From contig JAHEIH010000027.1 in NCBI GenBank assembly GCA_024639455.1, positions 178,822 to 242,821 on the forward strand: a stretch of 64,000 bases of DNA. The letters are read 5' to 3'. The stretch's first letter is position 1; every line of letters begins with the position of its first letter. Origin of the DNA: Cellvibrionales bacterium (lineage in GTDB: Bacteria > Pseudomonadota > Gammaproteobacteria > Pseudomonadales > JAHEIH01). Shown one piece after another: positions 14,117 to 30,407 of the stretch. Both the position numbers and the translations under genes were made by a program. The notes under the pieces were generated by a model that searched no databases, was not told where the DNA came from, and saw only the letters and a program-made list of their open reading frames with translations.

Positions 14117-14156
14117 CAATGTATCCTCTTAATGTGTCAGTTCACGGCAGCGTGCG

Positions 14157-14729
14157 CTAGCCTTGATTTACTATTGTCAGTAACTGTTCTCGTTCCATGC
14201 ATTGACCGCCAAACTCAGCCATCGCATCCAACATACAGCGGCGAAAATATTCTGCTGCCGCGCTGTCGCACAGCAGGTTAAAACAGGTGTCGTTACCGAG
14301 TGTTTGATGAACCACAATGGCATTCACCCTGGCTACGGACGTCTGTGCGATAGTCCCTGGTGGAAACACCACTGCACGTAAATCTACCCCGCAGACCTTC
14401 GCCATTACATCAGCAGCACGGTCGCCGACCAACCAAAACCAGGCATGGCTATCTCGACAAAATAAGCGGTACACATCCTGTGCAGGGAGTGCCGCATCCT
14501 GCACCTTGTCCAACGGCGAATCTTCAGCCAAAGGATGTTGTAGCAACCAAAATTCCTTTGGACTCAAACGCAACACCGCCAGTTCGTCGCCATACGTGGC
14601 TAGATTAGGTGTGTCCGGAATGTTTATACCTAGCCGCTGTAAATGTTTTTCAGCGGCCAAGCCTCTGAAGCCTGCTCTGGCAGAGTCGCTCAGCTCAATC
14701 AATACAGGGTGTTCAAATTTCGATGCCAT
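14157..14729 (-). CDS. soxG: Sarcosine oxidase gamma subunit family
   Basis: Its size (190 aa) and its position directly after soxA match soxBDAG operons. It resembles the GcvT-like SoxG fold family. Confidence 0.75.
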   Translation of the reverse strand: MASKFEHPVLIELSDSARAGFRGLAAEKHLQRLGINIPDTPNLATYGDELAVLRLSPKEFWLLQHPLAEDSPLDKVQDAALPAQDVYRLFCRDSHAWFWLVGDRAADVMAKVCGVDLRAVVFPPGTIAQTSVARVNAIVVHQTLGNDTCFNLLCDSAAAEYFRRCMLDAMAEFGGQCMEREQLLTIVNQG

Positions 14730-14738
14730 AACGCCCCC

Positions 14739-17651
14739 TTACAGTGCTTGACGCTGGTTGTCAGGATCAAAGAACGGCATCGCTACCACCTCGGCAAAAA
14801 TTCTCTTGCCACCGTCCACGCGAATAGGAAGTTTGCTCCCCACAGCGGCCTGGTCGATACCCACAAATGCCATACCAATGATGGCGTCCAAAGTGGGCGA
14901 AAACTCACACGAAGTGACATTGCCACTGATGTCATCACCCTGCAATACCAGGTGGCCTTCTTCAGGCTTGAGACTGTTAGCGGGCAGAGTAAAACCTACC
15001 AATTGGCGAGTCTGTGGCTGGGCCATCAAAATATCCACCGAGCGACGCCCCACAAAAAACGGCTTTTTATAATTCAACGCCCATGTCAGAGACAATTCCC
15101 CGGGATGGCTCATACCATCGGTATCCTGACCCACAATGATATGGCCTTTTTCCAGCCGCAACAGGCGTTGCGCCTCAACGCCAAAGGGCTTAATCCCTAG
15201 CGTTTTACCGGCACCCATCACTGCGTCCCACAGGGCTTCGCCAAAACGCGATGGCACGTGAATTTCATAACCCAGTTCACCGACAAAACCGACCCGCAGC
15301 AAGCGTGCAGGCATCCCAGCCAAGGTGCATTCACGGAACCCTAAGTAGGGAAAAGCCTCTGGCGAAAGATCAATATCCGCTCCCATGTCCAGCAGCACCT
15401 CTCGCGCCAAGGGGCCAGCCACGTTAACCGCAGCAAAGGCCGAAGTGACATTGGCAATGTCGACATTTAACCGCCACTGGGCGTTCCACTTCATCATATT
15501 GCGATAAACACCCTCGACACCGCTTGTTGTAGCCGTTACATAAAAGTGCTGATCGCTCAACCGACAAGCCACACCATCGTCCACGACCACGCCATGCTCA
15601 TTGGTCATCACCGCATAACGGGTTTTGCCCACCGGCTGCTTAGCAAATCCAAAGGTGTACATACGCTCCAAAAATTCCACAGCATCGGGCCCTCGCAGCT
15701 CGATACCGCCAAGTGTACTGACATCGATAACACCGACCTGATGTCGCACATGCCAGGCTTCATCGCGAATACACGCTTGCCGCTGGCTTGTTGTCCCGTA
15801 ATAGGCCGGGCGCTGCCAATTCCCGGCTGGCATCATTTGCGCACCGAGTTCGACATGGCGCTGATGCATGCGGGTGCGACGATAAGGGTCAAACATTCGC
15901 CCCGCGCTGTGAGCCAATTTTTCCGGCGCAAACGGCGGTCGAGCCGTCGTCACGCCAGTTTCTGTTACCGTACGGCCAGTCGCTTTAGCCACCAATCGGG
16001 CGGTTGCCAATGCCGAGTGCCGCCCCTGAGATGGCCCCATACCGACGGTTGAGAATCGCTTCACCAATTGGATGTCGCGATACCCCATGCGGGTAGCATT
16101 GATGATGTCCTTGGCCTGCAAGTCTTCATCAAAATCAACAAAGTCCTTACCTTTAGGGTGGCTAAAAATCGGCCAATCAAAATTCACTTGACGGCTGCAA
16201 AAGACATCCGAAGGTACCTTCTCAGACAAGCCGAGCTGGTGCAAAGCAACACGACCCGCGCGCTCACCATCCGCCAACACAGCAGATAACGCATGTCGGC
16301 CATTAACGGATCCTGCGATATGCAGGTGCTTCGGCAGGTTTGTTAACGTAAAGGCGGCACTTCCGTCGTGATAGTTCAACTGGCCGCCCGCCTGACAGAG
16401 CAACTGGTAGACAGGCATATAGCCAGATGACATACATACCACAACACAATCAATCGACTTGCCCTGTGAAGCCACCTTGCCTTGCCCAGTAATGGCACGC
16501 AACTCGGCGCCCCGAATGCCTCGATTGCCAGCACTTGGCAGTGCCTCATACACGGTGTGACCGGCATAGTGAGCAATACCCCGCGATTGCAAGGCAGCTA
16601 ACACGTCGGTTTGCTCTGGCTCGGCGCGCATATCGACCACCGCCGCCACCTCAATACCCGCCTCTTGCAGGTCGAGCGCCGTCATGTAGCCATCATCATT
16701 GCCGGTAAGACAAATCGCCCGCTGTCCGGGTGCCACGCCATACTGCTTGATCAATCGACTAGCGGCACTGGCCATCATCACGCCAGGTAAATCGTTATTG
16801 CGAAACACCACGTGTTGCTCAAACGCCCCCGACGCCACGATGCATTCTTTGGCGCGCACTTTGTACATCCGCTTGCCTTGAATGACGGGTAAAAAGTTAT
16901 CGGTAAACCACGCGTTGCACACCGCCTTGGTAAGCACCTGGATGTTGTTATTAGCCTCAACTTGGGCCACTAAATCCGCGCGCAGCTTATCCGCCTCGAC
17001 GCCGTCAATGTCAAAGCGATGGTAGGTCAGAGAGCCGCCTAATTGTGGCTGTTCGTCAACCAGTAGCACTGATGCGCCCCCATGAGCGGCGGTTAATGCG
17101 GCCATGAGACCTGCTGGGCCAGCGCCCACCACAACCACATCATGAAACAGAAAACATTTGTCATAGTACTCAGGGGTAAAAGCGAGATCTAGCACCCCCA
17201 GACCGGCCATTTTGCGGATCATCGGTTCCCATAGCGGCCACGTTTTAAACGATCTTAAGAAGGGTATTTTATAAAACGCTCGGTAATAAAACCCTACCGG
17301 CATAAAGCGTCCAAACCACCCCAATAATGAGGAGCGATCGTGTTGCAGCGAGCCGTTGTAATTTTGTCCCGTCACCGCCACCCCAGGCGTCAGAGGCAAT
17401 TGATCAGCCAGCACATTGGGTTCCCCCCCCACTTGCATGAGCGTGTTGGCATCTTGGCCCGCCATGGTTAATGGACCACGCGGGCGGTGGTATTTGAACG
17501 AACGAGACATCAAGGCCTCGTTATTCGCCATTAAAGCACTGGCCACGGTGTCGCCTTCAAATCCCGCTAGGCGGCGACCTTCATAGCTAAAGTCGATAGG
17601 CTTATCGCGGTTAATAAAAAGCCCGGCGGGAGCGGGAAGACGAGTCATCAT
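14739..17651 (-). CDS. soxA: Sarcosine oxidase alpha subunit family (heterotetrameric type)
   Basis: 970 aa. VVVVGAGPAGLMAAL NAD/FAD fold and a C-terminal aminomethyltransferase (GcvT)-like folate domain. Its start overlaps the soxD stop (ATGATGA). Confidence 0.9.
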   Translation of the reverse strand: MMTRLPAPAGLFINRDKPIDFSYEGRRLAGFEGDTVASALMANNEALMSRSFKYHRPRGPLTMAGQDANTLMQVGGEPNVLADQLPLTPGVAVTGQNYNGSLQHDRSSLLGWFGRFMPVGFYYRAFYKIPFLRSFKTWPLWEPMIRKMAGLGVLDLAFTPEYYDKCFLFHDVVVVGAGPAGLMAALTAAHGGASVLLVDEQPQLGGSLTYHRFDIDGVEADKLRADLVAQVEANNNIQVLTKAVCNAWFTDNFLPVIQGKRMYKVRAKECIVASGAFEQHVVFRNNDLPGVMMASAASRLIKQYGVAPGQRAICLTGNDDGYMTALDLQEAGIEVAAVVDMRAEPEQTDVLAALQSRGIAHYAGHTVYEALPSAGNRGIRGAELRAITGQGKVASQGKSIDCVVVCMSSGYMPVYQLLCQAGGQLNYHDGSAAFTLTNLPKHLHIAGSVNGRHALSAVLADGERAGRVALHQLGLSEKVPSDVFCSRQVNFDWPIFSHPKGKDFVDFDEDLQAKDIINATRMGYRDIQLVKRFSTVGMGPSQGRHSALATARLVAKATGRTVTETGVTTARPPFAPEKLAHSAGRMFDPYRRTRMHQRHVELGAQMMPAGNWQRPAYYGTTSQRQACIRDEAWHVRHQVGVIDVSTLGGIELRGPDAVEFLERMYTFGFAKQPVGKTRYAVMTNEHGVVVDDGVACRLSDQHFYVTATTSGVEGVYRNMMKWNAQWRLNVDIANVTSAFAAVNVAGPLAREVLLDMGADIDLSPEAFPYLGFRECTLAGMPARLLRVGFVGELGYEIHVPSRFGEALWDAVMGAGKTLGIKPFGVEAQRLLRLEKGHIIVGQDTDGMSHPGELSLTWALNYKKPFFVGRRSVDILMAQPQTRQLVGFTLPANSLKPEEGHLVLQGDDISGNVTSCEFSPTLDAIIGMAFVGIDQAAVGSKLPIRVDGGKRIFAEVVAMPFFDPDNQRQAL

Positions 17652-17953
17652 TGCTCCTCCTTATCGCTGCCAGCAACCATAAAATCGATGCGCTGCTGAA
17701 ACATGTCCGAGGCATCGTAGGTACGCACAATGTCATCGGTTACGGTGTGGCGCTCGGCGATAAACCAATACCCTGAGGGGGTATGCAGCCACCATTCGGT
17801 GACCACGCCGGCACGGTTATCGGCATAAAACACGTATTCCGCCCACGCCTTATCCGTGCATTCATCGGGTTGGGGCATTTGTCTAACATCGCCGCCGTAA
17901 ACAAACTCACTGATATTGCGGGGACCGTTAAGTGGGCAGTGCATAATTTTCAT
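17648..17953 (-). CDS. soxD: Sarcosine oxidase delta subunit family
   Basis: MKIMHCPLNGPRNISEFVYGGD is the characteristic SoxD N-terminus. 101 aa. Confidence 0.9.
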   Translation of the reverse strand: MKIMHCPLNGPRNISEFVYGGDVRQMPQPDECTDKAWAEYVFYADNRAGVVTEWWLHTPSGYWFIAERHTVTDDIVRTYDASDMFQQRIDFMVAGSDKEEQ

Positions 17954-17978
17954 GATCGCTTTCTCTTCTCACTCAACA

Positions 17979-19226
17979 TTAATGGCTCGCCGCCGTTGCG
18001 CCCATTTCGTTGACCTGCTTGAAGGTATCGAAACGTGACATGGCAAACGGTGCAATTAACTCTGGTACAACACCGCCACTGGCCACCAACTCAGCCATCG
18101 TCTTGCCGCAGATAGGCGTGGCCTTAAAGCCCCAGGTACCCCATCCTGCGTCCAAATAGTAATTTTCTACAGGACTCAAGCCCATGATTGGACTGTAATC
18201 CGACGTCATATCAGTGATACCGGCCCACTGCCGCAATAGTCGCAAATTGGCCATAAACGGGAACATTTCGATGGCATGGGCAAGCAGGCTCTCTTTCAAC
18301 TCCAAGGTTGAGCGGGTGTTGTATAGCGGATAGGGATCGGAACCCCCGCCAAACACCATTTCACCACGACTGGTTTGCTGTACATAGCAGTGCAGCGCCG
18401 AGGAACTGACCAGCGGATCCAAGAAAGGCTTAACCGGTTGCGTGACCATGGCTTGTAGCGGATAGGTTGTTATGGGCATTCTAAACCCTGCTTTAGCCGC
18501 CATTAACGAGCTGTTACCCGCCACGGCCTGTACCACACAGCCACAACTAATGTTGCCGCGATTGGTATGAACGCCGGTCACCCTGCCATTTTGAATATCG
18601 ACATCGGTTACCTCAGTTAATTGGTGTAATTCCACACCGCGCTGGGTCGCTCCTTTAGCGTAACCCCAAGCCACCGCGTCGTGGCGTGCTGTGGCGCCAT
18701 CCTTGTGCCAAAGACCCGCCAACACGGGTAAATGAGCGGGGTTCATATTCAAGGTGGGGACTAACTCGCGAATCTCTTGTGGTCCAATGAGTTCGGTGCG
18801 CCCCCCGAAGTGCTTGTTGACTTCAGCGCGCTGGCGAAAGGCACGCACAGTCGCATCCGTGTGCGCCAAGGTCAGCTGACCACGTTCAGAATACATAATG
18901 TTGAAATCAAATTCGTGCGACAAATTCTGGAACAGCTTGACCGATGCTGCATAGAATTTGACGCCTTGCGGTGTCATGTAATTTGAACGAATCACCGCGG
19001 TATTGCGGGCGGTATTCCCCCCACCAAGGTAGCCTTTTTCAAGCACGGCCACATTGGTAATGCCGTGGTACTTAGCAAGGTAATACGCTGTCGCCACCCC
19101 GTGGCCACCACCGCCGATGATAACAACATCGTAGTGACGCTTTAGCTCACTGGGCGGCGGTAGATCCGGGTCGTTTTCGAAGGGGTAATCGCTTTTTAAA
19201 CCGAATTTCAGAAGTGAAAATGGCAT
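17979..19226 (-). CDS. soxB: Sarcosine oxidase beta subunit family
   Basis: YDVVIIGGGGHGVATAYYLAK...GGGNTARNTAVIRSNY, at the typical SoxB length of 415 aa. Confidence 0.9.
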   Translation of the reverse strand: MPFSLLKFGLKSDYPFENDPDLPPPSELKRHYDVVIIGGGGHGVATAYYLAKYHGITNVAVLEKGYLGGGNTARNTAVIRSNYMTPQGVKFYAASVKLFQNLSHEFDFNIMYSERGQLTLAHTDATVRAFRQRAEVNKHFGGRTELIGPQEIRELVPTLNMNPAHLPVLAGLWHKDGATARHDAVAWGYAKGATQRGVELHQLTEVTDVDIQNGRVTGVHTNRGNISCGCVVQAVAGNSSLMAAKAGFRMPITTYPLQAMVTQPVKPFLDPLVSSSALHCYVQQTSRGEMVFGGGSDPYPLYNTRSTLELKESLLAHAIEMFPFMANLRLLRQWAGITDMTSDYSPIMGLSPVENYYLDAGWGTWGFKATPICGKTMAELVASGGVVPELIAPFAMSRFDTFKQVNEMGATAASH

Positions 19227-19238
19227 ATCGGAGCCCTC

Positions 19239-20666
19239 TTAAGCCTTCGGCACGCGGATCGCGACGTTTTTGGTACGCACATAGCTATACAGTGCTTGCT
19301 GGCCTTTTTCTCGACCAAACCCAGACAAGCCGATGCCGCCAAAGGGTGTTTCAATACCTCCAGCATACCACTCATTAACAAACACCTGACCCGCCTGAAG
19401 GGCACGACTTGCGCGCATGGCGCGACCTAAGTCGCGGGTAAAGACACCAGCGACTAAGCCATATTCCGTGGCATTTGCTAAGGCATAGGCTTCCTCTTCA
19501 CTATCAAAAGGCGTGATCGCCAACACCGGACCAAATACTTCCTGGCAAAACAATTCCGTGCCCGGTGCAACATCGGCAAATACCGTAGGCGCCACATAAT
19601 AGCCGTCGCCTATCTGTGCCTTGCCCCCCGTAAGCAGGCGAGCGCCGTCTTGGTTGGCCCGCTCGCACATGTCAAGCACGCGTTGCTGTTGCTGCGCGGA
19701 AATGAGCGGCGTGAAATTCACACTGTCGCTACCCATTTTTTCAGCAAACGTAATCACCCGAGCCAATACTTGATCATAGATATCACGCTGGACCAGCATG
19801 CGCGACATCGCCGAGCACACCTGACCGCCATTAAAGAAAATGCCCCAGCGCACACTGTCCATCAAGTTATCGAGATCCGCATCGGCAAACACCACCGCCG
19901 CAGATTTGCCGCCCAATTCCATGACGCAAGGCGTAGCGCGATCGGCAGCCGCCCGCAGAATTGCCTGACCCGTAGGGACGGAGCCGGTAAATACAATCTG
20001 ATCCACCTCGCGATGAGCGACCAAAGCGGCTCCCGTTTCGTGGCCATAACCGCACAGAATGCTCAACGCTCCCTCGGGTAAGCCAGCTCGCTGACACGCG
20101 GTGGCAATCATAGTGATTGCTAGCGGCGTATTTTCGGGGGATTTCACAACCACCGCACAACCCGCCGCCAAGGCAGGTGCCAAAGAGCGCGCGCAGATAT
20201 CGACCGGAAAATTCCAAGGCACAATCTGCACCGACACGCCCATCGGCTCATAGTAGGTAAAATCGACATAATCTTCCCCTAGCGGGATCGACGTGCCTTC
20301 AATTTTGTCGGCCATACCGGCGTAGTAATCGAAATAGCGTGCAGCGATAGCAAATTCTTCTTGGGCATCTGCCAGGCTTTTACCGTTTTCTCGCGCCAAC
20401 AACGCGCCGCCTTGCTCGACCATTTGTTCAAGCTCACGCGCAATACGGCGCAGTAAGGCCGCCCGCTCAAGCGGGCGATGGCGGGTTAATTCACCCTTAT
20501 TAACGCATGCACGAGCGGCTACCATAGCAGCATCGATATCGGTATCAGAGGCACAAGCGATTGAAGCAAACACCTTGCCCGAGGACGGATCTTCCACCTC
20601 AATATGACGCTCTGCATCAAGCCACTCGCCCGCCACGAAGTTAAGCCAGTGTGTTTTTTCAGACAT
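19239..20666 (-). CDS. NAD(P)-dependent aldehyde dehydrogenase
   Basis: VMELGGKSAAVVF (catalytic Glu region) and FFNGGQVCSAMSR (catalytic Cys). The ATG at 20666 overlaps the TGA stop of the upstream Rieske gene by 8 nt. Confidence 0.85.
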   Translation of the reverse strand: MSEKTHWLNFVAGEWLDAERHIEVEDPSSGKVFASIACASDTDIDAAMVAARACVNKGELTRHRPLERAALLRRIARELEQMVEQGGALLARENGKSLADAQEEFAIAARYFDYYAGMADKIEGTSIPLGEDYVDFTYYEPMGVSVQIVPWNFPVDICARSLAPALAAGCAVVVKSPENTPLAITMIATACQRAGLPEGALSILCGYGHETGAALVAHREVDQIVFTGSVPTGQAILRAAADRATPCVMELGGKSAAVVFADADLDNLMDSVRWGIFFNGGQVCSAMSRMLVQRDIYDQVLARVITFAEKMGSDSVNFTPLISAQQQQRVLDMCERANQDGARLLTGGKAQIGDGYYVAPTVFADVAPGTELFCQEVFGPVLAITPFDSEEEAYALANATEYGLVAGVFTRDLGRAMRASRALQAGQVFVNEWYAGGIETPFGGIGLSGFGREKGQQALYSYVRTKNVAIRVPKA

Positions 20667-21846
20667 TAGCGGCATCCTTAGCATACAAATTAGCTATCCA
20701 ATTGTGAAAATGGTGGGTCGGTCCATCCAGCACAGGAGAGAATACCCCCCCTTTGAACCCAGGGGATCGACGGCCGCGTTGCATGCCCTCAACCGCAAAT
20801 ACATCCTCGCCAAACACCACCTTCCAACTATTTAGCACCGCCGCTCGACAGGCCTCATAGGCATCGCCCACTGCCTCGCTGCCGACATATCCCAACTGGA
20901 GTTTTTCTAGCGTGCGATTATTGGCTTCAGGTTGCAAAATGATAGCGAAGAAATGGTCGGCTTGAACGCCGAGTAGGACATTGGGATAGAGCGAGATATA
21001 TTCCGCTTGGCGCAATTTTTCTTCAGGCCATTCGGGGAACTGGGGTAGCGATGTTCCGGCCACATCCGCCAAGTTATAGGTCAACGTCCCCTGGCCTGAC
21101 ATATTGTCATTTACGATCAGGTTGTAATGCTGATCAAGTGGCGAATAGGTATTCAACGCGGGGTGTACCCAAGGTAAGTGATAGGCCTCGCAGTAATTTT
21201 CAACCGCCAACTTCCAATTCGCATCTACCGTTAATTCCATGTGACTTTCAGTGTTGGCGACCCTAAGATGCTCCATACCGTGTTTACCGGTAAATTGTTC
21301 CCAACGCGCTTCTAAGGGTGCAATGAAGTCTGTGAATGTTTCGGCTGCGCCTGACAAGTTAATGAATACAATGTCATTCCACACCGCCGAACGCACTTCT
21401 TTAAGGCCATGCTTTTCGCAAGCAAAACCTTCTGCTTCGTGCTGGCCCACACCGCCAATATGAGGCGTCGCCACAAGGTGGCCATCCAGATCGTAACTCC
21501 AGGAGTGATAGGGGCAGCGAACCAAACGTTTCACCTCGGTTTCTTCACGCACCAAAATCATGCCACGATGACTGCAAATATTGTGGAACACCTTTAGCGT
21601 GCCCTCGCGGTTGCGCATCACCACTAAAGGCAAACCCATAAAGTCAATCGGCTTAGCAGCACCTACATTAGGGATTTCGCTGGCGAACAACAATCCTGCC
21701 CAGGCACGCCCCAACACATTATCGCGTTCATATTCAAACAACTGAGGATCATCGTAGGCGGCATTAGGCATACCATTGGCCATTTCGATGGGCGACCGAA
21801 CCGCATCCAGAGACACGAGAGGAATTTGATGTTTTGAAGACGACAT
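20659..21846 (-). CDS. Rieske [2Fe-2S] non-haem-iron oxygenase alpha subunit (GbcA / CntA / choline-monooxygenase-like family)
   Basis: Rieske motif CSHRG...CPYHSWSY and a C-terminal catalytic domain. I prefer the ATG at 21846 over the TTG at 21867. Confidence 0.8.
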   Translation of the reverse strand: MSSSKHQIPLVSLDAVRSPIEMANGMPNAAYDDPQLFEYERDNVLGRAWAGLLFASEIPNVGAAKPIDFMGLPLVVMRNREGTLKVFHNICSHRGMILVREETEVKRLVRCPYHSWSYDLDGHLVATPHIGGVGQHEAEGFACEKHGLKEVRSAVWNDIVFINLSGAAETFTDFIAPLEARWEQFTGKHGMEHLRVANTESHMELTVDANWKLAVENYCEAYHLPWVHPALNTYSPLDQHYNLIVNDNMSGQGTLTYNLADVAGTSLPQFPEWPEEKLRQAEYISLYPNVLLGVQADHFFAIILQPEANNRTLEKLQLGYVGSEAVGDAYEACRAAVLNSWKVVFGEDVFAVEGMQRGRRSPGFKGGVFSPVLDGPTHHFHNWIANLYAKDAANV

Positions 21847-21959
21847 AACCGAATAACCTAGTGGCAAGTTGTTTATAATTTGAACACATAGTATTGATAT
21901 TAAGATCTTGTCGACAAACGACTTTTTCGGCTATATGTTATGAAAAAAATTCATGCATA

Positions 21960-22883
21960 ATGGCCTCGATAATGAAACAACGACCACTGCCACCGCTAAA
22001 CAGTCTCGTGGCCTTTGAATCTGCCGCCCGGCTGCTCAATTTCACTCTAGCTGCGCACGAGCTAAGCCTAACTCAAAGCGCTATAAGCAAATCTATCCGC
22101 CAGCTTGAAAGCTACCTGGGTCGCCCGCTGTTTGTGCGCGAAAAGCGGGCGTTAGCGCTAACCCCAACCGGCATCAGCTACTACGACACAGTGCATCAAG
22201 CGCTGCTACAAATATCGCTGGCCACCCGCGACATTGTGCAGTGGCAAGGAGAGCAGCAAGTCACCGTCATGACCAGTAATGCCATGGCCTCGTTTTGGCT
22301 ACTCCCCAAAATTGGCGAGTTTCAAGATCAGCACCCTGATATTGAATTGCGCATCATGTCAACCGACTCGATGAGCAACGTACGATTCAGTGAATTTGAT
22401 GTGGCACTGTTCTATTGCCGAACACCCCCTGAGGGACTCGCCGCTACACCGCTGTTTAACGAAGCCGTGTTTCCAGTGTGCAGCCCTGGCTACAAGGAAA
22501 AAATTTCACCCTTAAACACGCCAGAAGACCTGTTAAAAGCCACATTGCTGTCGCTAGAAATCAATGAAGAATGGATCACATGGGGCGATTGGTGCAAAGA
22601 GACCATACCCAATTACGTCGCCAGCAAAACCCGCAACATCAACATGAACAACTACCTGCTGGTGATACAAGCCGCTCTCAACGGCCAAGGTGTTGCTCTA
22701 GGCTGGGAACATTTGGTTGATGATTACCTCGATAGTGGTTTGCTGGTAAAAGCTACCGAACAGCGCCTAATGACTCAATCTCAGTTTTATATGATTGAGC
22801 CGACCCTCGAAAGTCGACCAAAAGCCGGGGTGGAACAATTTAAGCGATGGCTTCTCTCTCAGCTAAAACACGACAAGCTATAA
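21960..22883 (+). CDS. LysR-family regulator (GcvA-like), divergent from the Rieske-sox operon
   Basis: LNSLVAFESAARLLNFTLAAHELSLTQSAISKSIRQLE helix-turn-helix. The start is ATG 21960 or ATG 21972. Confidence 0.8.
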   Translation: MASIMKQRPLPPLNSLVAFESAARLLNFTLAAHELSLTQSAISKSIRQLESYLGRPLFVREKRALALTPTGISYYDTVHQALLQISLATRDIVQWQGEQQVTVMTSNAMASFWLLPKIGEFQDQHPDIELRIMSTDSMSNVRFSEFDVALFYCRTPPEGLAATPLFNEAVFPVCSPGYKEKISPLNTPEDLLKATLLSLEINEEWITWGDWCKETIPNYVASKTRNINMNNYLLVIQAALNGQGVALGWEHLVDDYLDSGLLVKATEQRLMTQSQFYMIEPTLESRPKAGVEQFKRWLLSQLKHDKL

Positions 22884-22894
22884 TATTGGGCACC

Positions 22895-23782
22895 TTACCC
22901 TGCTTGCACCGACACTAAAAACGCTCTCGCCACCGGCGACAATGGGCGCGACTGCCGATAGACCAAGTACCAGCGACTTGAGATATCCAGCCCAACCACG
23001 TTGATCTGCGCTACACCTTCGCTGCCACCATGGCTAAGCACATGCTCACTAACAATACCTAGCCCCAAACCCGACATCACGGTGTGCTTGATCGCTTCGT
23101 TGCTCTCGATGGTCATGCGCACATTTAATTCAATACCGCGCTCGGCGCAAAACTGCTCGATAGATAGTCGGGTACCCGAGCCGGCTTCGCGCATCAGCAG
23201 CGGCTCTTTGCAAAACTCTTCTAAACTCAAATGCTGTCGTTTAGCAAAGGGGTGGTTCAACGGCGCAATCGCCACCAAACGGTTATTGAGCATAGGGACG
23301 GTGGCTAACTCGCTATCTTTGGGCGGATGGCTGAATACGTAAAAATCATCCATGTCGGCTGCGGCTCGTGCAATGATCTGTTGCCGGTTGCCTAGGTTGA
23401 ATTGAAACTCAATACTGGGGTGGGTCTCGCTAAACTCACCCACCATGTAGGGAATAAAATACTTAGCTGTGGTCACTAGGCCCAAAGACAGCGCTCCCTG
23501 TTCAATGCCTTTCAACTGGGTAACGCGCCGCCCCAAATCGTAGTAGTCGGTAAGCAGCCGGCGTGCGTGTTCCACTACCATTTTGCCGCCCTCGGTAAAC
23601 TTGATCTGCCGCCCTTGCTGGTAGGTCAGGTCAATACCCAGGGTTTCCTGCAGTTTATTAAGCTGCATGGTCACGCTGGGCTGGGTCAAAAATAACCTTT
23701 CCGAAGCGCGGGTCACGCTGCCCTCATCGAACACAGCCACCAAAATCTCAAATTGCCGTAGCGTTCCTAGATACTTATCCAT
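22895..23782 (-). CDS. LysR-family regulator, divergent from the SbtA-like/purEK operon
   Basis: LRQFEILVAVFDEGSVTRASERLFLTQPSVTMQLNKLQ helix-turn-helix. 295 aa. Confidence 0.85.
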   Translation of the reverse strand: MDKYLGTLRQFEILVAVFDEGSVTRASERLFLTQPSVTMQLNKLQETLGIDLTYQQGRQIKFTEGGKMVVEHARRLLTDYYDLGRRVTQLKGIEQGALSLGLVTTAKYFIPYMVGEFSETHPSIEFQFNLGNRQQIIARAAADMDDFYVFSHPPKDSELATVPMLNNRLVAIAPLNHPFAKRQHLSLEEFCKEPLLMREAGSGTRLSIEQFCAERGIELNVRMTIESNEAIKHTVMSGLGLGIVSEHVLSHGGSEGVAQINVVGLDISSRWYLVYRQSRPLSPVARAFLVSVQAG

Positions 23783-23783
23783 A

Positions 23784-23805
23784 ATTATTTATCTATACAA
23801 ATAAT
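23784..23805. promoter_or_regulatory. Candidate LysR-type operator (inverted repeat with a T-N11-A core) in the divergent intergenic region
   Basis: ATTATTT-N8-AAATAAT dyad immediately upstream of the LysR start, in a 90-bp A/T-rich region. Confidence 0.3.
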
Positions 23806-23872
23806 AGTAATTATTGATTTTTATTTATGTTTTGCAAGAGATAAATTAGTTTCTACAACATCGGAGGTCACT

Positions 23873-24058
23873 ATGAATACTCGCCAAATGCTTTTTTCAT
23901 TGTTTGTTGGTTTTGCGCTAGTATTGATCGGTTCGCAACTGAGCACTCTGGTTCCCGCGGTAAGTACTATGCAGTGGGCTGGTGCGGCACTGGTGGCGGC
24001 CACCGCTCTGAATGTTAGCTGGCAGTACTTCTCACCAGCCTTAGCGCGAGCGAAATAA
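23873..24058 (+). CDS. Small (61 aa) two-helix membrane protein, first gene of the SbtA-like/purEK operon
   Basis: GGAGG RBS 6 nt before the ATG. Two hydrophobic helices. The stop lies 3 nt before the next start. I recognise no family. Confidence 0.45.
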   Translation: MNTRQMLFSLFVGFALVLIGSQLSTLVPAVSTMQWAGAALVAATALNVSWQYFSPALARAK

Positions 24059-24061
24059 CCT

Positions 24062-24997
24062 ATGCAACTAGACATCGTCGTCGGATTTTTCATCTTCGGC
24101 GTGATCGCTGAGCTTCTTCGCAGCGATATGCGCCTCCCCGAATCCCTCTATAAGAGCTGCACCATCTTTCTACTGCTCGCCATCGGTCTAAAAGGGGGCC
24201 ACGCCCTCGCTGAAAGTGACTGGCGTGACGTCATCGGCAAATCCGCTCTAGTGATCGCCTTCGGCGCCATGCTTCCTCTGCTCGCCTTCCCCATCTTGCG
24301 CTATATCGGCGGCCTGCCACGCATTGACGCCGCCTCCACCGCCGCCCACTACGGCTCGGTGAGTGTCGCTACTTATGCGGTGGCCGTCGCGCTGGCCGAA
24401 TCCATTAACTTAGAATATGAGCCATATTTGCCGCTGTTTGTGGCGCTGCTAGAAGTCCCCGCTATTTTCACCGGCATCCTACTCGCCAAGCCCAATTTCT
24501 GGCGAGATGAGAACCGCGGCGAAGTGCTGCACGAGATCTTTTTGAACCAAGGTGTGGTGCTGTTAATCGGCGGAATTATCCTCGGCGCATGGGCCGGTGA
24601 TCGCATTGATCGCGTAATGCCGTTTTTCGGCGGGCTTTTTCACGGTATACTTGCTCTTTTCCTGCTGGAAATGGGTAGACAAGCCGCGACACGCCTAGAA
24701 GCTATAAAGCGCTACGGCCTGTTTTTAACGTCATTTGGTGTGTTTATGCCGCTAGTAGGAGCCAGCCTCGCTTGGGCATTAGCACAATTTATGAACCTCA
24801 GTGCTGGGGGAGCATTCCTATTGATGGTACTTGGCAGCAGTGCCTCGTACATCGCCGTTCCCGCCGCCATGAGAAGTGCACTCCCCAAGGCAGACGCTGG
24901 ATTAAGTATTACCGCCTCATTGGCGATAACTTTTCCGTTTAACGTATTGGTAGCCATCCCAGTCTACCTCGCCCTGGCAATGGGAGATATTCTATGA
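24062..24997 (+). CDS. Sodium-dependent bicarbonate transporter family permease (SbtA-like, Sbt_1/DUF897 type)
   Basis: 311 aa polytopic protein. The N-terminus [31 protein letters not shown]...[10 protein letters not shown] is typical of this family. Its stop overlaps the purE start (ATGA). Confidence 0.75.
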
Positions 24998-25485
24998 CAT
25001 CGCTTGACTTCGCCCCTGTGACAATCATCATGGGTTCGCGCTCTGACTGGCCCACTATGCAAGAGGCCACAAACCCCCTGCGCGAACTGGGCGTTGAATT
25101 TGCGACAAACGTGGTATCCGCGCATCGCACCCCCGACCGCTTAGCCCACTTCGCCAAGAGCGCCAAAGAGCAAGGTGTGAAAGTGGTAATCGCCGGTGCA
25201 GGCGGTGCAGCGCACCTACCAGGGATGGCGGCGGCTATGACCCCCTTACCCGTGCTCGGCGTGCCTGTAAAAAGTAAGTTTAATGACGGCCTAGACAGTT
25301 TGATGTCGATCGTGCAAATGCCCCGCGGTATTGCGGTAGGCACGTTGGCAGTAGGCGGCGCCGGTGCCTATAACGCTGGCCTGATGGCGGCGCAAATTCT
25401 TTCTTTGAGCGACCCTGCCTTGGCCGAGCGCCTCGACGCCTGGCGTCAAAAACAAACCGACGGTGTACCGGTCGAGGTTGAATAA
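24994..25485 (+). CDS. purE: N5-carboxyaminoimidazole ribonucleotide mutase (class I PurE)
   Basis: [12 protein letters not shown]...SAHRTPDRL...[12 protein letters not shown] motifs. Confidence 0.95.
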
Positions 25486-26591
25486 TGCACATTGCTGTCT
25501 ACGGCTGCGGCCAACTCGCACAAATGATGATCCAGGCTGCGCAACCGCTCGGCCACACGGCTAGCTTTATCCGCGAGGACGGCGAAGACACCGTTTGCGT
25601 GAAAGACCTGGGCAACATTGTGTTGCGCAGCGAATTAACTAGCGATGACGCCCTGAAGGCGTTTTTGGCCGACGTCGACGTGATGACGGTTGAAAAAGAA
25701 CAGGTCAACCTCGAATTCCTGCGCCGCTGCGCTCAATTCGTGACCGTGCACCCCAACCCCAACGCAGTAGAAATCTGTGGCGACCGCTGGAAAGAGAAGA
25801 GCACACTGCGCTCGCTCGACATCCCCGTCACTGATTTTTTCGACTACGCCAACCCACCGGTCGAACCCACCCATAGCCCCTTGGGATACATCGCCAAAAG
25901 CTGCCGCGACGGCTACGACGGTAAGCACCAACACCGAGTAAAAACGTGGGACGAACTGGCGCAACTGCCGCTGCAAGGGGTGGCCTTAGGCGACTGGATC
26001 GTCGAGGCCATGGTGCCGTTTGACTTCGAATTTTCGGTGGTCGGCTGTCGTGACCAAGCCGGCAACATCGCCATGTATTCGGCGATTGAAAACGAACACG
26101 TAGACGGAATTCTTCGCCGTTCAGTAACCCCATCCAACCGCCTACCTGTTGGCTTGCGACTAGAGGCTGAAACCTACCTCAGCCGCCTGCTCGACCACTG
26201 GGGCTACGTTGGCGTGCTAACCATGGAATGCTTCGCCGTTAATGGCAGCATGATGGTAAACGAACTGGCACCCCGCGTGCACAACAGCGGCCACTGGAGC
26301 ATGTTCAATACCGCCGCGTCGCAGTTTGAAAACCACATCCGCGGCGTCACGGGTATGATACTCACCGAACCCACCTACCAAGGGGTGCGGGGTATGCTCA
26401 ACCTGGTGGGCAGCGACGATATTCCCGCTGTAGCCAAAGATAACCCCGATATCAGCGTGGTACTGTACGGAAAAAGTGTTCGCCCTGGTCGAAAAGTGGG
26501 GCATATTAACGTGCAGAATGACGATCCTGGGGTGGTTAAAAAACTGCTAGATCAGCTTGAAGCGGCGGTTTATCCCTCAGCCGATGGTTAA
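25485..26591 (+). CDS. purK: N5-carboxyaminoimidazole ribonucleotide synthetase (ATP-grasp)
   Basis: ELAPRVHNSGHW motif. TAATG overlap with purE. 368 aa. Confidence 0.9.
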   Translation: MHIAVYGCGQLAQMMIQAAQPLGHTASFIREDGEDTVCVKDLGNIVLRSELTSDDALKAFLADVDVMTVEKEQVNLEFLRRCAQFVTVHPNPNAVEICGDRWKEKSTLRSLDIPVTDFFDYANPPVEPTHSPLGYIAKSCRDGYDGKHQHRVKTWDELAQLPLQGVALGDWIVEAMVPFDFEFSVVGCRDQAGNIAMYSAIENEHVDGILRRSVTPSNRLPVGLRLEAETYLSRLLDHWGYVGVLTMECFAVNGSMMVNELAPRVHNSGHWSMFNTAASQFENHIRGVTGMILTEPTYQGVRGMLNLVGSDDIPAVAKDNPDISVVLYGKSVRPGRKVGHINVQNDDPGVVKKLLDQLEAAVYPSADG

Positions 26592-26624: not shown

Positions 26625-26999
26625 TTACGATACAGGGCTGAAAAACCGATGTAAGTGCGTTTGGCGAATGGCGAAGCGATACTTGCTCATTTCAGCCAGT
26701 CGCGTACTGGAAATAATGACACGGCAAAGTCGGTTATCACTCTCAACAATCGTCGCCACTTCAACGCCAATAAATTCACTACTCATCAGCAACTGAAAGA
26801 CCGCTTTACCGAGTTGGTATTCAGGTAGCTCGGGGGGCATATAATTCACAACCACGTCGGATGTTAAAGAACGGCCGCCCACTAAAAGCTGGTAAAGATC
26901 CGAGGCGACGTAACGTGCGATGGCACTAGGCCGATCGGTAATCCGGGTGGCGTTTTCAACACTTGCAACGATTGTATCTAAGGTTTCTGATGACCGCAT
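26625..26999 (-). CDS. Hypothetical protein (124 aa)
   Basis: The ORF is trimmed to the ATG at 26999 because the longer 186-aa form would overlap the ahpF 3' end. I recognise no motif. Confidence 0.35.
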   Translation of the reverse strand: MRSSETLDTIVASVENATRITDRPSAIARYVASDLYQLLVGGRSLTSDVVVNYMPPELPEYQLGKAVFQLLMSSEFIGVEVATIVESDNRLCRVIISSTRLAEMSKYRFAIRQTHLHRFFSPVS

Positions 27000-27153
27000 A
27001 AACCAACACCCTCTTCGTGTATATAACTTGATAGTAGACACGTTGAGGGGGGCTGGAAGATGAAAAACCCTGCACGCAGAGTTGGAAGGTTTAAGCGCTG
27101 CGGGAGCAAGCTGCACCAGCAAGCTCCCATAAGGTGTGGTAAATAACGCGTGA

Positions 27154-28737
27154 CTACGCCGCTTCTGCCTGCCCAGCAGGTTCATGCACAGGTGTCTTCA
27201 GCAGGTATTCAAACGCCGACAGTGAGGCTTTTGCACCTTCGCCCATGGCGATGACGATCTGCTTGAAGGGCACGGTGGTCACGTCACCGCAGGCGTAAAT
27301 ACCGTCAGCCGAGGTGTGGCACTTCTCGTCAATCACAATTTCACCGTGCTTGGTGGTGTCGACCACCTCTTTCACGAACTGGCTATTGGGCACCAGACCG
27401 ATCTGTACGAACACCCCGGCCAACTCAACGCGCTTGGCTTCGCCGCTGGCGCGGTCGGTGTAGTTCAATCCATCCACCATGCCGTTGGCCGCCGTTACTT
27501 CAGTGGTTTGGGCGTTGGTAATAATCGTGATGTTGTCACGCCTCTTGGCCTGATCAACCAGTACTTGATCGGCGCGCAAGGTATCGGCGAACTCGAGTAC
27601 GGTGACCGATTTCACGATACCCGCCAAATCCAGCGCAGCTTCGATACCTGAGTTACCACCACCAATCACAGCAACGTCTTTGCCTTTGAAGAAGGGGCCG
27701 TCGCAGTGTGGGCAGTACGCCACGCCGTTGCCGATATTTTCTTTCTCGCCGGGCACACCCAGCTCTCTCCATCGTGCGCCAGTCGCTAAAATGACGCTGC
27801 GGCTTTCGATCACTTCACCCGAACTAAGAGTAATACGCTTCAGATCTCCCTGCTCGATACTGTCCACCTTGAGGTGTTCGCGCAGATTAATATCGTAAGC
27901 TTCCATGTGCTCGCGCAGGTTGCCCGACAGTTTAGGGCCGGTGGTTTCTTTCACCGAGATCAAGTTCTCGATACCCATGGTATCTTTCAACTGGCCACCG
28001 AAACGGTCTGCCACGATGGTCACCTTCAGGCCTTTGCGGGCACTGTAGATCGCCGCCGCCACACCCGCGGGGCCGCCACCAATAACGGTGACGTCTTGCA
28101 TAGGCAGGCTTTCTTTAGGGGCCGCTTTGACAGGGGCTACCGCCATAATTTTTTCTACCAACATGGCAGTATCGACCTTACCGTTGGCGAACAGTTCACC
28201 GTTCAGGTAAACCGCGGGCACGCCTTGCAAGTCGCGCTTTTGCACTTCATCTTGGAAAAGGCCACCGTCGATCATTTCGGAACGTATACGGGGATTCAAC
28301 AAGGCGAACTGATTAAGCGCCTGCACAACGTCGGGACAGTTATGGCAACTGAGGCTGACAAATACCTCAAAGTGCATGTCCTGCTCAACACCTTTAACCA
28401 ACTCGGCGACACTGGCATCAATTTTCATGTCTCGCCCACCGGCGTGCAGCATAGCTAACACCAGTGAGTTAAATTCGTGGCCGCCTGGAATACCCGAAAA
28501 GATCACACCGGTGGGTTGGCCATCGGCCAACAGGGTGAAACTAATGGGGCTGCGCAATGTGTCGGCCATATCGCGCTCTTCGAATGTCAGTTTATCTGAC
28601 ACGCTGCAAATCTTTGCTAAAAAATCGACCAACTCTGCGCGCTTGCTGTGGCTGCCTGTTTGCAGCACGAAGCTGACCGATTGTGTCATGCTTTCGGCAT
28701 AACTGGTTAAGGCTTTCAAAATATCGTTGTTCAACAT
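27154..28737 (-). CDS. ahpF: Alkyl hydroperoxide reductase subunit F
   Basis: N-terminal thioredoxin-like [21 protein letters not shown], and the redox CPHCDG. The start was moved to the ATG at 28737 ([10 protein letters not shown]), giving 527 aa. Confidence 0.92.
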
Positions 28738-28767
28738 GCTAAACGCTCCTATTGCTTTGTCGACGTT

Positions 28768-28785
28768 GGGGTGCCGAAGCACCCC
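28768..28785 (-). promoter_or_regulatory. Intercistronic hairpin between ahpC and ahpF
   Basis: GGGGTGC-cgaa-GCACCCC perfect 7-bp stem. No T-run follows, so it is likely an attenuating or processing hairpin rather than a full terminator. Confidence 0.35.
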
Positions 28786-28802
28786 GAGGGAAGTCGTTGG
28801 GC

Positions 28803-29366
28803 TTAGATTTTGCCAACCAGGTCCAATGAAGGCGCCAGGGTCGCTTCGCCTTCTTTCCATTTCGCAGGGCATACTTCACCGGGGTTGGCGGCTACGTACT
28901 GCGCTGCTTTAACTTTGCGAACCAGTTCGCCGGCGTCACGGCCTATGCCTTCAGCGGTGATTTCCATCGCTTGGATCACGCCTTCTGGGTCTACAAGGAA
29001 GGTACCGCGGTCAGCCAAACCTTGGTCTTCGCGCATCACTTCGAAGTTGCGAGTGATGGCACCAGTAGGGTCGCCGATCATGGTGTACTTGATCTTGCCG
29101 ATAGTCTCAGAAGTCTCATGCCATGCTTTGTGGGTGAAGTGGGTGTCAGTTGAAACTGAGTACACTTCTACGCCACGGCTTTGGAGTTCTTCGTAGTAGT
29201 CAGCCAGATCGCCCAATTCAGTGGGGCATACGAAAGTGAAATCAGCGGGGTAAAAGAAGAAAATGGCCCACTTACCTTTCACATCGGCCTCGGTCACTTC
29301 GATGAACTCGCCATCGCGGAAAGCTTGTGCTTTAAAAGGTTTAATTGCTGTATTGATCAGTGCCAT
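28803..29366 (-). CDS. ahpC: Alkyl hydroperoxide reductase subunit C (2-Cys peroxiredoxin)
   Basis: [16 protein letters not shown] peroxidatic Cys motif and the C-terminal EVCPAKW resolving Cys. Confidence 0.95.
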
Positions 29367-29507
29367 TGGAAAGTCTCCTCGGATAAATGACAGTTAGTAA
29401 AAAGTCGTTAATGACTTGATGAGTTGTATATTAATGATCTTGTACCGATTGATAAATCTTGTATTATCTAACTTAATCTTCGGAAAAACCTATCAAAGGG
29501 ATCTTGC

Positions 29508-30407
29508 ATGATTTCGTTAAAACAGATCAAGTACGCACTTGCCGTTGGCCGCACACTTCATTTTCGCCGAGCTGCGGAGGAGTGCAACATCTCGCAATCG
29601 GCGTTGAGCACGGCCCTGCAAGACATGGAGCAGCAATTGGGATTTGCGGTATTTGAGCGTGATAATAAGAAGGTGCTGGTGACCCCGCTTGGGCAGGAAG
29701 TGCTCGACAAAGCCAGTAGCATTCAAGTACAGATCGAAGACATCATGCGACTTGGCCAAACCCACGGTAAGGTCTTGAGCGGCCCGCTAAGCATGGGCAT
29801 GATTCCCACTATTGCCCCCTATTTATTACCGCGCCTGTTGCCCGGTATCGGCGCCGACTACCCCGATCTGCAGTTGAGTGTGGCAGAGGAGCAGTCGCAT
29901 GTATTGGTCGACAAGGTGCGCCGCGGCGAATTGGACTGTGCCATACTTGCCCTACCCTACGATTGTGATGGCCTTTTAAGCTTTAGCTTTTGGAAGGAAA
30001 ACTTCTACTGGGTCAGCCACAGTGACTTAGCGCCCGCAAGCCCGGTGATGCACGCCGAGGAACTGATTGATCATCAACTGATGCTCCTAAGTGAAGGCCA
30101 CTGCTTAAAAGACCACGCCTTGGCAGCGTGTAAGTTAGACAGCCACGCCACCCACTCGCTCAGCGCCACTAGCCTAACAACGCTGATCCAACTGGTAGTC
30201 GGTAAAATGGGCAGCACCTTGGTGCCAGAGATCGCGGTCGATCAGTTGGTCGATATTCATCCGGAGTTGGTAAAACTACCGCTAGACGAACCCGGCCCAC
30301 ACCGCGAACTGGCCTTTATCATTCGCCCCAACTATCCCAACATCAAGAACATCGAAGCATTGATGGCCTTGGCATCGAGGGATTTACGGCTGCAATTTGG
30401 GGGCTGA
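29508..30407 (+). CDS. oxyR: Hydrogen-peroxide-sensing LysR regulator OxyR
   Basis: Divergent from ahpC. The LLSEGHCLKDHALAAC segment carries the two redox Cys at OxyR-like spacing. Confidence 0.85.
   Translation: MISLKQIKYALAVGRTLHFRRAAEECNISQSALSTALQDMEQQLGFAVFERDNKKVLVTPLGQEVLDKASSIQVQIEDIMRLGQTHGKVLSGPLSMGMIPTIAPYLLPRLLPGIGADYPDLQLSVAEEQSHVLVDKVRRGELDCAILALPYDCDGLLSFSFWKENFYWVSHSDLAPASPVMHAEELIDHQLMLLSEGHCLKDHALAACKLDSHATHSLSATSLTTLIQLVVGKMGSTLVPEIAVDQLVDIHPELVKLPLDEPGPHRELAFIIRPNYPNIKNIEALMALASRDLRLQFGG

Follow-up and report, generated by a model that had tools for sequence, protein, structure and literature searches.

Among described systems, the closest to the locus reported here is the cyanobacterial sbtA-sbtB pair (slr1512-13 in Synechocystis), in which the bicarbonate carrier SbtA is encoded beside the PII-type protein SbtB and the pair is repressed by the LysR-type regulator NdhR/CcmR (sll1594), whose motif is ATAG-N8-CTAT (2026 review). 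SbtA1, SbtA2 and, according to a review, the Sbt proteins of proteobacterial autotrophs carry HCO3-, and energisation varies within the family, that of SbtA2 being different and chloride-dependent. SbtC, a membrane protein of 80 aa whose gene lies upstream of sbtAB in cyanobacteria and which is predicted to contain one transmembrane helix and two beta-strands, is reported to belong to the transporter complex, to act with SbtB in limiting bicarbonate leakage and to be restricted to cyanobacteria. Here we describe a 64,000-nucleotide stretch of DNA (the window) from a Cellvibrionales bacterium (assembly GCA_024639455.1, contig JAHEIH010000027.1, positions 178,822 to 242,821), in which a gene for an Sbt-family permease stands between a small membrane-protein gene and the purine genes purE and purK, and is faced by a divergent NdhR/CcmR-like LysR gene.

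Carboxylation of aminoimidazole ribonucleotide (AIR) is the only bicarbonate-using step of purine synthesis: PurK uses ATP and HCO3-, and class I PurE rearranges the product, N5-carboxyaminoimidazole ribonucleotide (N5-CAIR), to carboxyaminoimidazole ribonucleotide (CAIR). Cyanobacterial purK mutants require high CO2, and PurK is described as using HCO3- (review), which points to AIR carboxylation as the purine step that fails first when inorganic carbon (Ci) is low. In heterotrophs at the CO2 level of air, PurK, acetyl-CoA carboxylase and carbamoyl-phosphate synthetase depend on either a carbonic anhydrase or a bicarbonate importer, and the MpsAB/DAB systems of S. aureus and B. subtilis meet this need; their proteins are unrelated to those described here, and a linkage to purEK is not reported in those papers. 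In mammals, mTORC1 raises bicarbonate import through SLC4A7 for de novo purine and pyrimidine synthesis, but with a transporter of an unrelated family, by translational control and without an operon.

Compared with Synechocystis sbtAB, the window locus keeps the fold, the Pfam family, the Na+ site and two of the HCO3- serines of the transporter; its regulator has NdhR/CcmR as the closest solved homologue, and its predicted operator reads as an instance of ATAG-N8-CTAT. It differs in having no SbtB, no loop of ~60 residues between transmembrane helices 5 and 6, and replacements at Y140, S327 and D325 of SbtA1, as well as in its heterotrophic context, the position of the regulator divergently beside its target, the presence of purEK in the operon and the lack of any carboxysome or RubisCO context. 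Relative to E. coli-type purEK, the enzymes, their order, the overlap of their coding regions and the class I PurE and PurK chemistry are unchanged, but here the pair comes after two genes for membrane proteins and a LysR operator of the Ci type. We regard it as fairly probable that the locus is a Ci-responsive supply operon which imports bicarbonate and feeds PurK, and with it AIR carboxylation.

Results

Organisation of the locus

The genes of the locus and its 5′ region are arranged as follows.

22895-23782, minus strand: lysR, NdhR/CcmR-like LysR-type regulator, 295 aa, divergent from the operon
23783-23872: intergenic region between lysR and the small open reading frame (ORF), 90 bp, A/T-rich
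23863-23867, plus strand: ribosome-binding site GGAGG of the small ORF, 5 nt ahead of its ATG at 23873, read from the sequence
23873-24058, plus strand: small ORF, 61-aa two-helix membrane protein
24062-24997, plus strand: Sbt_1-family permease, putative bicarbonate transporter of the SbtB-less clade A, 311 aa
24994-25485, plus strand: purE, class I N5-CAIR mutase, 163 aa
25485-26591, plus strand: purK, N5-CAIR synthetase, 368 aa

The four plus-strand genes are closely packed. Only 3 nt (cct) separate the small ORF from the permease gene, the permease stop and the purE start share an ATGA overlap at 24994-24997, and the purE stop and purK start share a TAATG overlap at 25483-25487. Terminator-like sites between the genes of the operon occur at the background count. 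An earlier sequence-only reading had described this layout, and its genes, gaps, overlaps, ribosome-binding site and an A/T dyad (discussed below) are all present where it placed them. No second purE, purK or sbt gene, and no gene for a PII/SbtB protein or a beta-carbonic anhydrase, was found within the 64 kb. Two other modes of control were considered and rejected: at the Rfam gathering threshold the only RNA matches in the window are three tRNAs, so that a riboswitch or leader RNA was given up as an explanation for the 5′ region, and no PurR box was found anywhere in the window with 3 mismatches allowed.

Recurrence of the sbt-purEK linkage

A total of 80 loci (L001-L080), one genome per species, were surveyed by identifying neighbouring genes with tblastn and ORF clustering, and the Sbt proteins were divided into clades A, B and C on a neighbour-joining tree. 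At 17 of the 80 species loci, sbt has both purE and purK on its own strand at a distance of no more than 1.6 kb; an eighteenth possible case, L025, is a contig-edge fragment. The linked loci comprise 8 of 14 clade-A species loci (9 of 15 with the window, purEK here being directly downstream of sbt) and 9 of 37 clade-B loci, and linkage was never seen in clade C. Four gene orders occur, namely small-sbt-purE-purK, sbt-sbtB-purE-purK, sbt-sbtB-purK-purE (L020) and purE-purK-sbt-sbtB (L046), the first of which is also that of three metagenomic relatives of the window (L081, L082 and L084). The gap from sbt to purE measures 10-45 nt in the clade-A loci other than the window, in whose lineage the coding regions overlap. 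Linked loci span several orders of Gammaproteobacteria and include one betaproteobacterium, and by our own estimate random placement would give ~0.1 such loci in 80. The link between sbt and purEK is not due to chance. The sequence-only reading had treated the purEK adjacency as functional, and its conservation in relatives, in two Sbt clades and four arrangements, bears this out insofar as such recurrence indicates either repeated assembly or long retention under selection.

The three clades differ in what surrounds sbt. The window and 14 marine gammaproteobacterial species make up clade A, in which a LysR gene stands divergently 280-516 bp upstream and SbtB is absent from all 15 loci. The order in clade B is sbt-sbtB; in clade C, which comprises Alphaproteobacteria and cyanobacteria, sbtB is present and often accompanied by a beta-carbonic anhydrase gene, the neighbour clusters having been named PII and Pro_CA through Pfam. 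The clade B and C loci with a beta-carbonic anhydrase gene at most ~1.4 kb downstream of sbt, mostly just after sbtB, are L019, L024, L032, L033, L036, L048, L052, L056-L058, L060, L061, L065, L069, L073, L078 and L080, which include Pseudomonas/Stutzerimonas, Polaromonas, Sphingomonadales and cyanobacteria. The presence of PII-type SbtB and beta-carbonic anhydrase beside sbt in these clades ties the wider family to inorganic carbon. In the clade-A loci without purEK, the genes downstream of sbt look unrelated, resembling by eye an acetyltransferase, a deacetylase and an endonuclease III; other bicarbonate-using enzymes were considered at this position and, on the same inspection, set aside.

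Some observations on individual loci are recorded here. Two loci of the order sbt-sbtB-purEK, L022 and L041, belong to metagenome bins that bear the labels Klebsiella pneumoniae and Desulfovibrionaceae; in the tree their Sbt proteins fall among those of other Gammaproteobacteria, which may mean either wrong bin labels or gene transfer. L082 is the closest relative of the window locus, and a Y1/IS200-type transposase gene (4176-4631 of L082) adjoins its lysR, upstream of which synteny is lost. Between the window and L082, dN/dS (the ratio of nonsynonymous to synonymous divergence) is 0.035-0.05 throughout 22895-26591, and dS is uneven (lysR 1.13, small ORF 1.47, sbt 0.32, purE 0.47, purK 0.89), a pattern that might be explained by recombination inside the operon or by constraint on codon usage.

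The permease

A match to the bicarbonate-transporter model had been set beforehand as the check on the sequence-only identification of the permease, and when run it gave a full-length result. The protein scores 345 bits against Pfam Sbt_1 (PF05982, TC 2.A.83; E 4e-103, cutoff 27 bits), with residues 6-306 aligned to profile positions 2-307 of 308. By sequence, SbtA is its sole match of solved structure (7cye, E 4e-23), covering both inverted repeats. The AlphaFold (AF2) model of the permease, with a predicted local distance difference test score (pLDDT) of 89.7, superposes on the SbtA structures 7egl, 7egk, 8zor, 7cyf and 7cye with template-modelling (TM) scores of 0.86-0.89 and root-mean-square deviations of 2.5-3.6 Å, and the next-best folds are ASBT and NTCP at TM scores of 0.55-0.65. 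The closest named relatives are those of Microbulbifer (70%), Motiliproteus and Neptuniibacter.

The published sites of SbtA1 were carried onto the permease via the alignment. The Na+ site residues F110, G111, A112, A320 and S322 correspond to Y97, G98, S99, G258 and S260, of which G98 and S260 are invariant in all 81 Sbt sequences (L001-L080 and the window). The Na+ site, at the crossover of helices 4a and 9a in SbtA, coordinates through main-chain oxygens, so that the identity of the side chains there counts for little. Two of the HCO3- ligands proposed for SbtA1, S114 and S324, are kept as S101 and S262. SbtA residues 158-225, which form the ~60-residue cytoplasmic loop between transmembrane helices 5 and 6, have no counterpart, the permease measuring 311 aa and SbtA 374 aa. 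The motifs YGSVS (helix 4) and S-A-S-Y-I-A-V-P (helix 9) are invariant in the 81 Sbt proteins, the same positions in solved SbtA1 reading FGAVS and S-S-S-D-I-S-G-P, which indicates that the permease belongs to a distinct subfamily of ~310 aa and is not an SbtA1.

The LysR regulator and its predicted operator

The LysR protein contains the HTH_1 and LysR_substrate domains. Its best NCBIfam match is CbbR at 207 bits, below the cutoff of 450, and it is accordingly a relative of CbbR and not its orthologue. Against solved structures it matches 5y2v (E 5e-58) and CmpR (5z49, E 8e-46), with the next match at only 1e-26. NdhR is reported to bind 2-phosphoglycolate (2-PG) through T101, T102, H130, N164, R195, T201 and R267 (2026 review); mapped by hand, all seven ligands fall on the expected residue types in 5y2v when an 8-residue tag offset is allowed, which identifies 5y2v as NdhR/CcmR. 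Five of the seven are kept in the window protein (T104, T105, N167, R198 and T204, likewise mapped by hand), while H130 is replaced by R133 and R267 by S269 with R270 adjacent; the effector pocket looks anion-binding. Divergent LysR homologues of 44-53% identity are present at every clade-A locus.

The 90-bp region upstream of the small ORF and the start of lysR contain the following elements.

23767-23782: operator-like site 0, CTAGATACTTATCCAT, within the 5′ end of lysR
23781-23796: operator site 1, ATAATTATTTATCTAT, matching 10 of 12 positions of the palindrome ATAGAT-N4-ATCTAT
23784-23805: dyad ATTATTT-N8-AAATAAT of the sequence-only reading, overlapping site 1
23810-23837, minus strand: promoter-like site for lysR, TTGCAA-16-AATAAT, from a consensus scan only, with the regional count of such sites at background; overlaps site 2
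23813-23828: operator site 2, ATTGATTTTTATTTAT, matching 13 of 16 positions of ATCTATTTTTATCTAT; follows site 1 by 32 bp and precedes the small-ORF ATG by 60 bp

The intergenic regions between lysR and the small ORF in clade A share two elements, ATAGAT-N4-ATCTAT followed by ATCTATTTTTATCTAT. Their start-to-start spacing is 32 bp at 12 of 16 loci by best match, and the window and L082 fit this spacing too. Site 2 matches at least 13 of 16 positions at 14 of the 16 loci, compared with 0.6% of shuffles. With up to 2 mismatches, ATAGAT-N4-ATCTAT occurs four times in the 64 kb, and three of these matches cluster at 23767-23828. Site 1 of the window reads ATAA-N8-CTAT, one mismatch from ATAG-N8-CTAT, and that of L081 has a perfect ATAG-N8-CTAT core and matches 11 of 12 positions of the full palindrome. 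An exact ATAG-N8-CTAT stands upstream of sbt at 7 of the 15 clade-A loci, against 1 in the ~156 kb elsewhere in those loci, and none was found upstream of clade B or C sbt genes. The palindrome ATAGAT-N4-ATCTAT thus reads as an instance of the NdhR motif and is a predicted operator. Since it is found in the clade-A loci lacking purEK as well, lysR, the small gene and sbt emerge as the core module. The lysR promoter-like site lying over site 2 would fit autoregulation.

The sequence-only reading had compared the regulator with those of the CbbR/CmpR type, and the analogy proves stronger than it had guessed, the best structures being NdhR/CcmR and CmpR and the operator matching the NdhR motif. 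The dyad that it singled out is present, but it is not the conserved element: as a LysR site it was rejected, being not conserved in L081 and altered in L082, and the two-site operator takes its place.

A conserved small membrane protein

Between the window and L082 the small ORF shows 30.5 synonymous and 9.5 nonsynonymous differences, giving a dN/dS of 0.05, in the same range as sbt and purE, so that the gene is under purifying selection. Positional homologues of 61-83 aa are present at 14 of 15 clade-A loci, with a stop codon at or a few bases from the sbt start and, at most loci, a GGAG-type ribosome-binding site ahead. The proteins align without gaps across two hydrophobic helices, with F8 nearly invariant and a polar C-terminal tail, and the AlphaFold model is a helical hairpin (helices 3-24 and 28-53, pLDDT 72) without strands. 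The only clade-A locus where no small ORF was found upstream of sbt is L044, an Alcanivorax metagenome-assembled genome, whose sister L015 has one; an assembly error or frameshift is possible.

Neither Pfam nor NCBIfam has a match for the protein, and its relatives carry the NCBI label 'hypothetical protein'. A profile search of 1.84 billion cluster representatives retrieved at least 150 clusters, 57-99 aa in length, whose alignments start at residue 1 in nearly every case. Three weak matches with enough contig, P0200, P0240 and P0277 (E 3e-5 to 1e-3), each lie directly upstream of an Sbt_1 gene, one of them in a complete LysR/small/Sbt/PurE/PurK layout. When the 4735 small ORFs of 89 loci were searched with a local hidden Markov model of the protein, no other ORF matched, and clades B and C gave no match at all. 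A leader peptide or a chance ORF is ruled out by the dN/dS of 0.05, the size of the family and its exclusive position. The small ORF is thus a real gene, representing an unnamed two-helix family specific to the SbtB-less clade-A sbt genes, and the family is likely to be a transporter subunit.

SbtC is the nearest analogue, as it too is a small membrane protein encoded directly upstream of sbt. As SbtC has been described, however, the present protein is set apart from it by its hairpin model, the lack of strands and the absence of SbtB. That the usual SbtB partner is missing, as the sequence-only reading had stated, holds for the operon and for the whole window, where no PII homologue was found. 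Its further remark that a small ORF sits in the place of SbtB is right in that the gene is real and conserved, but wrong as to position, for it lies upstream of sbt and SbtB is encoded downstream.

PurE and PurK

PurE scores 204 bits against AIRC/TIGR01162, above the equivalog cutoff of 149.6, and only 39 bits against LarB. The equivalog score together with the adjacent PurK assigns it to class I, and its sequence contains the loop GGAAHLPGM, which we take to be a class I marker. PurK has all three Pfam domains (pre-ATP-grasp, ATP-grasp and PurK_C) and matches solved PurK proteins over their full length (best 3aw8, E 4e-62, residues 3-354). It falls narrowly below the NCBIfam equivalog cutoffs (PRK06019, 311 against 326 bits; TIGR01161, 287 against 318 bits), and the PurT profile gives only 57 bits.

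Neighbouring genes

Between purK and ahpF lies a 186-aa ORF (26625-27185, minus strand) without a Pfam or NCBIfam match. It is missing from the syntenic L081, and L082 has two other unannotated ORFs at this point, which marks a variable spot. Adjoining the operon, ahpF and ahpC on the minus strand and a divergent LysR gene (29508-30407) occupy 27154-30407 and look like a peroxide-stress unit, which is syntenic in L081 too. On the other side, 12770-22883 is a cluster for methylated-amine catabolism, with genes for a sarcosine oxidase alpha subunit, DAO oxidoreductases, an aldehyde dehydrogenase, a GbcA-like Rieske oxygenase and a GcvA-like LysR protein, the last of which is tail-to-tail with the NdhR-like LysR gene. 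Sarcosine oxidase, Rieske oxygenase, aldehyde dehydrogenase and AhpCF as neighbours make a context that fits a marine heterotroph.

Discussion

The working model that we favour runs as follows. The regulator would control a promoter overlapping site 2, with a small anionic metabolite as its signal of carbon status; by analogy with NdhR it would repress when carbon is replete, although it might instead act as an activator. The four genes would be transcribed into one mRNA and translationally coupled at the ATGA and TAATG overlaps. The small protein may assemble with the permease in an accessory role like those of SbtB and SbtC in cyanobacteria, and the permease would take up HCO3- from seawater, with an ion gradient as the probable driving force. 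PurK would then use this HCO3- with ATP and AIR to form N5-CAIR, which PurE would convert to CAIR.

Several findings weigh against this reading. The LysR-small-Sbt core is found without purEK at 6 of the 15 clade-A loci, which makes the coupling facultative. Of the four residues proposed as HCO3- ligands in SbtA1, two are replaced in the permease (Y140 by V127 and S327 by A265), D325 is replaced by Y263, and these replacements are invariant in all 81 sequences. A measured substrate was found for no heterotroph member of the ~310-aa subfamily. An internal promoter may serve purEK, which would then be transcribed separately. Finally, in the Sbt-like protein SO_3758 of the heterotroph Shewanella oneidensis, the change A269T gives formate tolerance, and the wild-type gene protects Zymomonas, for which the authors argue for efflux. 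As to the ligands, the SbtA1 site derives from a docking model, and the differences therefore lower the case for an SbtA1 but not that for a bicarbonate carrier. As to the facultative coupling, the sequence-only reading had the importer dedicated to the purine step, which was overstated; the purEK link itself is conserved, and the LysR-small-Sbt trio probably serves bicarbonate supply in general, with purEK as its most frequent passenger.

The formate phenotype leads to an alternative that we consider unlikely, namely that the permease carries another small anion, for example formate, or acts mainly in export or in pH and anion homeostasis, in which case the purEK link would not concern bicarbonate supply. 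SO_3758 shares the S-A-S motif at the helix 9 crossover, which is S260-A261-S262 in the permease, and the A of this motif is the residue changed to T in the formate-tolerant Shewanella; that protein has been studied only for formate tolerance, and its genomic context is not described in the paper. The departures of the substrate site from SbtA1 at Y140, S327 and D325 and the chloride-dependent energisation of SbtA2 are consistent with a different substrate. On the other hand, every characterised member of the family carries HCO3-, the invariant signature is shared by sbt genes of clades B and C that have SbtB and beta-carbonic anhydrase as neighbours, the recurrent partner is the bicarbonate-using PurK and not the formate-using PurT, and both regulator and operator belong to the Ci-control type.

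A somewhat more improbable account gives the adjacency no function: housekeeping purEK would have its own promoter in the 3′ end of sbt, and an Sbt module that landed upstream would simply have been inherited there. The existence of the module without purEK at those six clade-A loci and a weak promoter-like match at 25004-25031 are in keeping with it, but it has to contend with the linkage in two Sbt clades, four gene orders, several orders of Gammaproteobacteria and a betaproteobacterium, with clade-A gaps of 0-45 nt and overlapping coding regions in the window lineage, and with the chance expectation estimated above. Least probable is a variant of the favoured reading rather than its opposite, in which the purEK beside sbt would be an additional isozyme pair specific to low Ci, the housekeeping purEK lying elsewhere in the genome, as PurK scores just under its equivalog cutoffs and is 35-41% identical among linked loci where PurE is 57-70% identical, but PurK is in general less conserved than PurE, PurE here is well above its cutoff, PurK matches solved PurK end to end, and no second copy lies within the window.

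The bicarbonate-supply operon thus remains the reading that we prefer. Its part families are known; what is new is the operon, the family of small subunits and the occurrence of NdhR-type control in organisms other than cyanobacteria. Full-text searches found no paper describing a linkage of SbtA or other bicarbonate transporters with purE, purK, purEK or N5-CAIR, in agreement with the sequence-only reading, which was aware of no described Ci-uptake/purEK operon, and a 2024 review of dissolved inorganic carbon toolkits treats PurK and SbtA separately.

A broader proposal, which we put forward tentatively, is that marine heterotrophic Gammaproteobacteria may possess an unrecognised three-part Ci module, made up of an NdhR-type regulator with its ATAG-N8-CTAT operator, a new two-helix membrane subunit and an SbtB-less Sbt permease, which would share its regulatory ancestry with the cyanobacterial CO2-concentrating mechanism and would have been fused repeatedly to purEK; bicarbonate supply might then limit purine synthesis in the sea, and carbon status might directly control AIR carboxylation. 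Sbt-family genes are common in heterotrophs, and an operon that ties one of them to PurK offers a concrete physiological reason for their presence, with a bearing on dark inorganic-carbon uptake by marine heterotrophs. The locus also extends the NdhR/CcmR regulator-operator pair beyond cyanobacteria and draws attention to a family of small membrane proteins, as yet without a name, that probably supplies a transporter subunit, and for both points Microbulbifer, Neptuniibacter, Kangiella and Pseudoalteromonas provide culturable hosts.

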